Made by a program: the position numbers and the translations under genes | Assembly (NCBI RefSeq): GCF_003334765.1 | Contig: NZ_QOWT01000130.1 | Direction: 5' to 3' (one strand) | DNA length: 360 nucleotides | From: Escherichia coli | GTDB lineage: Bacteria > Pseudomonadota > Gammaproteobacteria > Enterobacterales > Enterobacteriaceae | Notes under the pieces: model-generated | The model's input: the letters and a program-made list of their open reading frames with translations, nothing else | Databases searched by the model: none | What the model was told of the DNA's origin: nothing | In this document: positions 1-360 of the stretch, piece by piece | How positions within the stretch are numbered: the first letter of the stretch is position 1 | How the letters are laid out: each line of letters opens with the position of its first letter

Positions 1-76
<76 letters not shown>

Positions 77-82
77 TAATTC

Positions 83-98
83 ACCACAGCGATGTGGT
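83..98 (+). other. Small hairpin 7 nt downstream of the copy-1 CCA: 6-bp stem with a GCGA (GNRA-type) tetraloop
   Basis: Seen in sequence: accaca (83-88) is the reverse complement of tgtggt (93-98); loop gcga (89-92). No U tract follows, so it is not an intrinsic terminator. Any role in processing is inference. Confidence 0.4.
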
Positions 99-150
99 AA
101 CTTCGGTGAGATTGTGAAAGTTTGCACTCATCGGGGAAGGGTGAGAACCT

Positions 151-165
151 TCGACTAAGGTTCGA
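151..165 (+). repeat. Degenerate copy of the tRNA variable-arm/T-arm region
   Basis: Seen in sequence: spacer tcgact (151-156) matches tRNA 41-46, and aaggttcga (157-165) matches tRNA 50-58, in the same order with a 3-nt deletion (tRNA 47-49 tcg) between them. That is 15 matched positions over an 18-nt tRNA segment. It lies about 68 bp upstream of the 19-nt 3'-end copy, so the spacer looks like a diverged partial tRNA duplication with inserted sequence. Confidence 0.5.
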
Positions 166-185
166 TTCGAGCGAAAGCGAGAGAA

Positions 186-202
186 CGTTGCCACAGGCAA
201 CG
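186..202 (+). other. Inverted repeat / hairpin: 7-bp stem with a 3-nt loop
   Basis: Seen in sequence: cgttgcc (186-192) is the reverse complement of ggcaacg (196-202); loop aca (193-195). No U tract follows. Function unknown. Confidence 0.35.
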
Positions 203-232
203 GCCCGAAGGGTGAGGAGCGAAGCGACGAAT

Positions 233-251
233 AATCCTTCCCCCACCACCA
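233..251 (+). repeat. Exact 19-nt copy of the tRNA-Tyr 3' terminus (aatccttcccccaccacca) inside the spacer
   Basis: Seen in sequence: 233-251 is identical to 58-76 (last 3 nt of the T loop, T stem 3' strand, acceptor 3' strand, discriminator and CCA). It is not preceded by the rest of a tRNA, so it is a 3'-end fragment, not a third gene. Confidence 0.9.
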
Positions 252-285
252 TCTCAAGCATTACCTCAAAATTTGAATTACCCCT

Positions 286-360
<75 letters not shown>

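Follow-up and report, generated by a model that had tools for sequence, protein, structure and literature searches.

The tyrT-tyrV spacer of Escherichia coli contains a full-length RtT element

The stretch of Escherichia coli DNA analysed in this study (360 bases, hereafter the window) is the tyrT-tyrV spacer region, and it is 100% identical to many E. coli chromosomes. The window includes the 3' part of tyrT, the spacer and the 5' part of tyrV, and the spacer carries a tRNA-linked repeat (TLR) of the RtT RNA family. The subject of this report is a short hairpin within this repeat, here called H3. A first-pass annotation of the window had listed it as a perfect 7-bp inverted repeat with a 3-nt loop at positions 186-202, a description that proved exact.

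A scan with Rfam models matched the RtT family (RF00391) on the plus strand at 120-251 with 132.9 bits (gathering score 45, E = 1.5e-29) across the full model (positions 1-130 of 130). The score lies above the curated threshold, the consensus helices including the closing stem P1 are matched, and an 'RtT sRNA' is annotated at this place in RefSeq E. coli genomes. The element also agrees with the definition of TLRs given by Rudd (1999), as quoted in PMC8144298. It lies directly after tyrT (which ends at 76) and before tyrV (which starts at 286) on the same strand, and it includes 20 nt identical to the 3' end of the upstream tRNA, where 18-19 identical base-pairs are expected of a TLR. Like the TLRs described by Egan and Landy (1978) and Rudd (1999; both as cited in PMC8144298), it lies directly behind a tRNA gene, and its last part repeats the 3' end of that tRNA. 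The window element is a full-length, high-scoring member of this family, from which it differs in nothing essential.

The tRNA-Tyr gene annotated at 1492-1576 of genome locus L001 corresponds to window positions -8 to 76 and has the same sequence as K-12 tyrT. ARAGORN found no tRNA in the window because the window edges cut both tRNA genes, and Rfam and genome annotation were therefore used instead to assign them. In the E. coli collection, 16,531 places match the window (27 of these on plasmids). A place covering at least 80% of it was found in only 4,725 of 5,426 E. coli genomes, indicating that the tyrT-RtT-tyrV arrangement varies within the species.

H3 forms a strong local stem-loop

H3 forms a strong, autonomous local RNA stem-loop. 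Folded alone it yields -8.9 kcal/mol, and each of its seven pairs has a probability of at least 0.976 both in the whole window and in the full tyrT-spacer-tyrV precursor. The helix is present in the minimum free energy (MFE) structure as well as in the centroid structure of the spacer. It corresponds to the six-pair helix of the RF00391 consensus (<<<<<<____>>>>>>, model positions 67-72/78-83), onto which CGUUGC/GCAACG (186-191/197-202) is aligned with posterior probability '*'. Compared with this consensus, tyr-type units carry an additional seventh C-G pair that closes the 3-nt loop.

Among dinucleotide shuffles of the window, 13% contain at least one perfect 7-bp hairpin with a loop of 3-8 nt, and a second such hairpin is found in the real sequence at 145-163. 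A single sequence therefore proves little, and the case that H3 is more than a chance occurrence rests on related sequences.

Base-pairing of H3 is preserved among related repeats

Related repeats were collected by scanning one genome per species with the pattern GGNTGAGAANCTTCGNNNNAGGTNCG, which lies upstream of H3 and does not overlap it. The scan yielded 117 loci, almost all from Enterobacterales, with a total of 184 units (159 full length by a criterion independent of H3, 142 distinct). Among the 142 distinct units, standard pairs are found in 98.4% of H3 cells, and double-sided changes occur at all seven pairs, with 60 compensatory cells, where cells count sequences and not evolutionary events. 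The stem variants themselves represent several independent events. The observed pairing values were reached in none of 500 column shuffles, and control alignments in which the 3' partner was slid by 1-3 columns were only 19-56% paired. RNAalifold predicted H3 independently, without prior input.

The stem reads CGTCGC/GCGACG in Sodalis and Acerihabitans, CGATGC/GCATCG in Acerihabitans, CGCGC/GCGCG in Pantoea and Serratia oryzae, CGCTGCC/GGCAGCG in Pluralibacter, TGTTGCC/GGCAACA in Huaxiibacter and Lelliottia, CGTTACC/GGTAACG in Pseudocitrobacter and TATTGCC/GGCAATG in Siccibacter. Single-step intermediates (U.G and C.A) are also present. The loop varies freely (ACA, GCA, AAA, AAC, GTCA, TTCA and others). 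These findings indicate that selection acts on the pairing of H3, not on its loop and not on an encoded peptide.

The first-pass annotation had considered that the hairpin might be inherited from an ancestral repeat unit, and had proposed looking for it downstream of the second tRNA and in other species. Both searches bear this suggestion out. All three K-12 units after tyrV, as well as the sole unit downstream of tyrV in strain 300709, have the same stem with GCA in place of ACA in the loop, and other species have it with the compensatory changes described above. Spacers that do not carry H3 lack the entire RtT element or the segment comprising hairpins H1 to H3, so that none was found in which H3 alone is missing from an otherwise conserved spacer.

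The bases flanking the stem (185 and 203; columns 53 and 72 of alignment A1) also covary. They read A...G in spacer-type units and in the lys, arg, pro and rrn TLRs, and G...A in distal tyr units. This could reflect a purine-purine pair that extends H3, or mere linkage between two paralogue types.

H3 and an adjacent motif are shared by tRNA- and 5S rRNA-linked repeats

TLRs were first described at the tyrT locus in 1978, and E. coli K-12 has 22 of them at ten loci (PMC8144298). The other K-12 loci were located via the strain table of that publication, and 19 copies were found by the motif CCCGNAGGG. These copies follow tyrT/V, lysT/W/Y/Z/Q/V, argV/Z/Q, proK, serX and rrfB, and were used to derive a core arrangement consisting of a hairpin, one base and CCCGNAGGG. 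H3 has a fixed position in this core, one base before the invariant CCCGNAGGG, which runs straight into hairpin H4: the hairpin ends exactly 1 nt before the motif in 19 of 19 copies, and the same is true of the window (186-202 and 204-212). The motif may itself form a 3-bp mini-hairpin at 204-212, and its columns are nearly invariant, without covariation.

The stem CGUUGC/GCAACG is found in 13 of the 19 copies (four tyr copies, lysT/W/Y/Z, argV/Z/Q, proK and rrfB). The copies after lysQ and lysV have an expanded stem, CG-GA-GCCG...CGGC-GA-CG, and CCG-UGA-AC...GU-GAG-CGG is found in the three serX copies. In the short lys and arg repeats only P1, H3, CCCGNAGGG and H4 are present, with no other hairpins within P1, which places H3 in the minimal unit. 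The 5' strand of P1 follows the copied tRNA, being GGGGAAGGAT in tyr, GGGAGGAT in arg, GGGGGGAT in ser and GAGGAT in pro repeats. Scores for RF00391 are above threshold for the pro and lys copies and for two of the three ser copies, and below it for the third serX copy and the arg copies. The rrnB copy (L120 820-930), which lies between terminators T1 and T2, is the RrB sRNA and has the core GAACGTTGC-GAA-GCAACGGCCCGGAGGGTG; it was not detected by RF00391 at E <= 1. Many cloning vectors contain the rrnB T1-T2 segment.

A metagenome-assembled genome (MAG) of Cellvibrionaceae has the same layout after tRNA-Gln(UUG) (L085 2879-3075), with the stem UUCGC/GCGAA beside CCCGAAGGG, and this repeat ends with a copy of the 3' end of that tRNA-Gln. 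The family therefore extends past Enterobacterales and past the tRNA species listed for K-12. Otherwise, the scanned units in other genomes always follow tRNA-Tyr. The tyr-type and rrn-type TLRs of one Sodalis genome have different H3 stems, a single counter-example on which genome-wide homogenisation of H3 was rejected.

No RtT follows tyrU in K-12 (tyrU-glyT spacer, L120 4558-4673). The homologous position of the thrU-tyrU-glyT-thrT operon is occupied by one to three RtT units in three other genomes. Two genomes labelled as Bacteroidota ('Chryseobacterium sp. 18061', L116) and Alphaproteobacteria ('Martelella alba', L041) carry tRNA-Tyr and RtT loci of enterobacterial type, which likely reflects assembly contamination or mislabelling.

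Neighbouring helices have the signatures of a folded RNA

The helices that surround H3 (Table 1) change in ways typical of RNA. Of the cells of P1, 99% are paired, with G-U far exceeding A-C (38 versus 4), and an excess of the same kind is seen in H4 (15 versus 6). The tandem G.A pair in H2 alternates with Watson-Crick pairs (C-G/U-A) in Enterobacter asburiae (L016), Pluralibacter (L018) and an Enterobacter species (L092). Spacer-type units have GAAA as the H2 loop; in most distal-type units this loop is shorter by one base, and the frame of the tpr gene discussed below is thereby shifted.

H4 is not part of the RF00391 consensus line as aligned to the window. Rfam instead pairs CUUCG...UUCG over a long range with CGAA-GGCG, an arrangement with which H4 conflicts at alignment column 83. 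In 137 of 142 sequences, the base in this column (T/C) covaries with that in column 103 (A/G), giving 84 C-G and 53 U-A pairs, and the short lys and arg TLRs do not have the 5' partner of the long-range pairing, which was therefore set aside. The covariation of the Rfam RtT structure has also been analysed by Rivas in 2020 and 2021 (PMC7657543, PMC8250186). In these papers RtT serves as an example in which an additional helix around a tandem GA emerges from covariation and in which one Rfam helix is without support.

The 5' arm of RtT (133-154) is 86% complementary over 22 nt to the T arm and acceptor 3' strand of tyrT (47-68). In the MFE structure of the precursor, the RtT 5' arm pairs with the tyrT T arm and P1 is not formed, and H3 forms either way. 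The folding model thus raises the possibility of an alternative fold, or of antisense pairing with tRNA-Tyr. When the precursor was folded with and without the H3 stem, in a trial of whether the stem insulates the tRNAs, the model failed to reproduce the tRNA cloverleaves.

Several further observations concern the rest of the element. Pairing is predicted between the copied tRNA 3' end CCCCACCA (241-248) and the 5' acceptor strand of tyrV, TGGTGGGG (285-292), with a probability of ~0.5 in the precursor ensemble; according to this model, the copied end would possibly compete with correct folding of tyrV. The repeat AAGGGTGAG has a third, weaker copy at 175-189, which hints that the RtT unit may have an internal period of ~35 nt. 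A hammerhead-like reading of GGAUGAGAA was dropped; the Rfam scan of the window matched no ribozyme family.

Table 1. Features of the 360-base tyrT-tyrV window and of the RtT element within it.
Feature	Position	Strand	Remarks
tRNA-Tyr(GUA) gene tyrT, 3' part	1-76	+	Cut by window edge; CCA end 74-76; Rfam tRNA match 1-73
tyrT-tyrV spacer	77-285	+	209 nt; Rfam and genome annotation
Leader of spacer repeat	77-132	+	Specific to spacer copy, unlike leader of distal units; small hairpin at 78-103
RtT RNA (TLR after tyrT)	120-251	+	Rfam RF00391
P1 closing helix, 5' strand	134-142	+	Pairs with 234-242; Rfam consensus; RNAalifold columns 2-10/106-114
tpr frame remnant GTG AGA ACC TTC GAC TAA	141-158	+	Homologous to K-12 ATG AGA AGC TTC GAC CAA
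H1 hairpin GAACCTT-CGACT-AAGGTTC	145-163	+	T-arm-like; columns fixed by search pattern, hence no covariation signal
H2 hairpin	166-183	+	Arms 166-172/177-183; tandem G.A/A.G pair, GAAA loop; double-sided changes at 5 of 7 pairs
H3 hairpin CGTTGCC-ACA-GGCAACG	186-202	+	Arms 186-192/196-202; 7 bp, 100% complementary; 3-nt loop ACA
CCC-GAA-GGG (CCCGNAGGG)	204-212	+	Near-invariant; starts one base after H3 end; in all K-12 TLR copies examined
H4 hairpin	213-231	+	Arms 213-220/224-231; two tandem G.A motifs in window copy; double-sided changes at 7 of 8 pairs
Copy of tRNA-Tyr 3' end AATCCTTCCCCCACCACCAT	233-252	+	TLR hallmark; direct repeat D5, 58-77 = 233-252, 20 nt, 100% identical
tyrV 5' leader	253-285	+	
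tRNA-Tyr(GUA) gene tyrV, 5' part	286-360	+	Cut by window edge; Rfam tRNA match 286-360; annotation L001 1786-1870

The spacer copy is variable among species

The species sample is biased to genomes that have at least one RtT somewhere. Within it, a full RtT in the tyrT-tyrV spacer was recognized by the strict pattern in 20 species. Nine further spacers are long (200-226 nt), most of them with RtT, and H3 is kept in all those that were read. In four species, namely Salmonella enterica subsp. diarizonae, Pluralibacter gergoviae, Pseudocitrobacter vendiensis and a Kosakonia species (L022, L069, L086 and L102), the spacer is 132-142 nt long, with H1 to H3 deleted between the AAGGGTGAG direct repeats. 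These deletions look like the outcome of recombination or slippage between the repeats. Approximately 49 species have a spacer of 22-82 nt without any repeat.

H3 is best explained as a selected helix of the RtT RNA

We consider it very probable that H3 is a selected RNA helix of the RtT RNA, a TLR that is co-transcribed with tyrT and tyrV on the plus strand. Whether H3 serves as an architectural arm of a processed spacer RNA is a narrower proposal, to which we give about an even chance. By this proposal, the spacer RNA would owe a compact, nuclease-resistant fold to H3, CCCGNAGGG and H4, and the decoy copy of the tRNA 3' end would be held in P1 of this fold. The spacer could then be excised in a tRNA-like manner, by cleavage a few bases after each CCA together with 3' trimming, and could remain as a by-product RNA. 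The 5' end of the annotated rttR lies 8 nt after the CCA of tyrV and its 3' end at the copied CCA. The rtT RNA was reportedly described by Bosl and Kersten in 1991 as an expressed, processed RNA of 171 nt. This RNA (annotated as rttR) is the first unit after tyrV in K-12, and not the spacer copy present in the window. Elsewhere in the literature, a pseudouridine preprint does no more than cite the 1991 paper, and a study of Klebsiella in spaceflight is confined to expression changes.

A number of observations weigh against this interpretation. H3 has no experimental link to any activity. The wobble asymmetry within H3 is uninformative (8 G-U cells versus 6 A-C), and H3 alone therefore identifies neither the selected strand nor the selected molecule (RNA or DNA). 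P1 is absent from the predicted precursor fold, which makes the global fold provisional. The spacer copy is missing from most related species and four have lost H1 to H3, and the strain table of PMC8144298 includes strain TSS107, deleted for all 22 TLRs, which together mean that any function is non-essential. A starvation phenotype once ascribed to rtT was retracted and later assigned to a nearby open reading frame (ORF), and TLRs are stated to have no known function (PMC8144298). Finally, 13 of 19 K-12 copies share CGUUGC/GCAACG across subfamilies that differ elsewhere, which could mean sequence-specific recognition instead of a purely architectural role.

This last point leads to the alternative that a trans-acting protein or RNase binds or cleaves all TLRs at a shared site made up of H3 and CCCGNAGGG. 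The identity of the stem across subfamilies in which P1 and H4 differ is what such a site would lead one to expect, as is the near-invariance of the adjacent motif. In addition, pull-downs with the homologous RrB RNA recover proteins, with CsrA the strongest, and in vitro this RNA binds Hfq (PMC8144298). However, the loop is not conserved, and unrelated sequences take the place of the stem in Pantoea (CGCGC), in the Cellvibrionaceae MAG (UUCGC) and, as tandem-GA expanded versions, after lysQ, lysV and serX. Moreover, even within one Sodalis genome the tyr-type and rrn-type stems differ. CsrA binding has been placed at GGA motifs in other loops by Stenum et al., with no CsrA affinity predicted for tRNA-operon TLRs (PMC8144298). 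H3 is also far from both annotated ends of the rtT RNA, of which one lies 8 nt behind the tRNA CCA and the other at the copied CCA. The same lack of sequence conservation and the same distance argue against the endonuclease recognition context proposed in the first-pass annotation. We therefore regard a shared recognition site as unlikely.

H3 might alternatively be a palindrome that acts at the DNA level in recombination or propagation of the repeat, with the TLR being the remnant of a mobile or integrative element whose insertion duplicated the tRNA 3' end. The duplication of 18-20 bp resembles that of an att site, the number of units varies from 1 to 5 between strains and species, natural deletions have occurred between internal direct repeats, and H3 has no excess of G-U over A-C. 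Against this stand the neighbouring helices, whose plus-strand wobble bias and non-canonical G.A pairs are those of an RNA, and the fact that the units are always sense-oriented inside highly transcribed stable-RNA operons. No associated recombinase gene was seen, although no systematic search for one was made. This explanation is in our view very unlikely.

It is extremely unlikely that H3 reflects a coding constraint or a translational signal for the protamine-like Tpr peptide. This possibility arises because the first distal unit of K-12 contains tpr (L119 688-777), whose start codon is the ATG within GGATGAGAA in the first unit after tyrV and whose product is MRSFDQGSTRAPARERCRRQRPEGRSAQR. 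There, H3 lies inside the ORF as codons 16-21 (CGT TGC CGC AGG CAA CGA) and encodes R-C-R-R-Q-R of the annotated 29-aa protein. The second K-12 unit is not intact and reads GAC TAA. The tpr start corresponds to GTG 141-143 in the window copy. This codon is 45 nt upstream of H3 and is followed by TAA at codon 6 (with a further TGA at 213-215), and the intact frame of ~29 codons is absent. The same stop is found in 130 of 188 units (69%). At least 25 codons are kept in only 30 of the 188, and these read H3 in differing frames because of upstream 1-nt indels. The first-pass annotation had placed the hairpin upstream of a tpr-like GTG at 212. Its distance is arithmetically right, with 9 nt between H3 and GTG 212-214, but this GTG belongs to the second copy of the direct repeat AAGGGTGAG (137-145 and 208-216), is out of the tpr frame and is not the tpr-like start. 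Compensatory stem changes are likewise not predicted by a peptide constraint. Together with the broken ORF, they effectively refute a coding role for the window copy. From the sequence comparisons, peptide constraint cannot explain H3, and the status of tpr itself as a protein-coding gene appears doubtful.

Transcription terminator or attenuator function is also scarcely credible for H3. RtT is filed under 'Cis-reg' in Rfam, and similarity between rtT and some candidate attenuators, with which rtT-like sequences were grouped, has been noted in one paper (PMC2965389). However, an intrinsic terminator is a G+C-rich hairpin followed by a U-run, and the H3 stem has GGCCCGAAGGG downstream instead; a scan of the window found 0 terminator-like sites, and tyrV lies downstream in the same operon. 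A promoter reading of H3 was rejected after a scan of the window. A chance inverted repeat, despite the 13% of shuffles with a perfect 7-bp hairpin, has a negligible probability given the compensatory conservation in 142 units, the shared hairpin across K-12 TLR subfamilies and the RNAalifold prediction.

Relation to known repeats and significance

The RtT element is related to the RrA, RrB and RrF small RNAs (sRNAs), which are TLRs located between T1 and T2 of rrnA, rrnB and rrnD (Stenum et al. 2021, PMC8144298). RtT and these sRNAs have in common the core GAACGTTGC-GAA-GCAACGGCCCGGAGGGTG, a three-hairpin layout and a copy of the 3' end of the upstream stable RNA. Unlike RtT, the sRNAs follow 5S rRNA and have flanking hairpins with CsrA-binding GGA loops. 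Stem-loops 2-4 of RrB are conserved across Enterobacterales, and RrB has been probed in vitro (Stenum et al. 2021, PMC8144298). The 3'ETS-leuZ RNA (Lalaouna et al. 2015, as cited in PMC8144298) is, like RtT, a stable RNA excised from the spacer of a tRNA precursor. However, 3'ETS-leuZ acts as a base-pairing sponge for sRNAs, whereas no such activity is known for RtT, and no sequence relation between the two was found. REP/BIME palindromes share with TLRs a repeated, palindromic, intergenic and enterobacterial nature, but TLRs differ in being tied to stable-RNA 3' ends, in carrying a copy of such an end and in having a multi-helix fold. Finally, tpr (b1229), the gene for a protamine-like protein, overlaps the first distal RtT unit in K-12, and neither the window copy nor the majority of units keeps its ORF unbroken.

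H3 was already known, since it is drawn in the Rfam RtT consensus structure and the covariation of the family has been analysed in print. The finding of the hairpin alone thus matters little, given that the helix is already in the consensus and that its framing relative to tpr was wrong. The addition made here is modest: judging by sequence comparison, the hairpin together with CCCGNAGGG is the common core of all tRNA- and 5S-linked repeats examined, in K-12 and beyond. Its presence in every copy examined, including RrB, makes H3 plus CCCGNAGGG a natural first target for work on the function of TLRs, of which K-12 has 22 copies.

A more far-reaching proposal is that H3 and the invariant CCCGNAGGG are the functional heart of the TLR superfamily. 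They might serve as a docking site for a factor, or as a cis element for 3'-end copying and for the spread of TLRs behind tyr, lys, arg, pro, ser and gln tRNA and 5S rRNA genes. We consider this decidedly improbable, and it is kept in mind because the stem is identical in 13 of 19 K-12 copies and because the element extends past Enterobacterales. If true, it would explain a class of repeats that has been without an assigned function since 1978.

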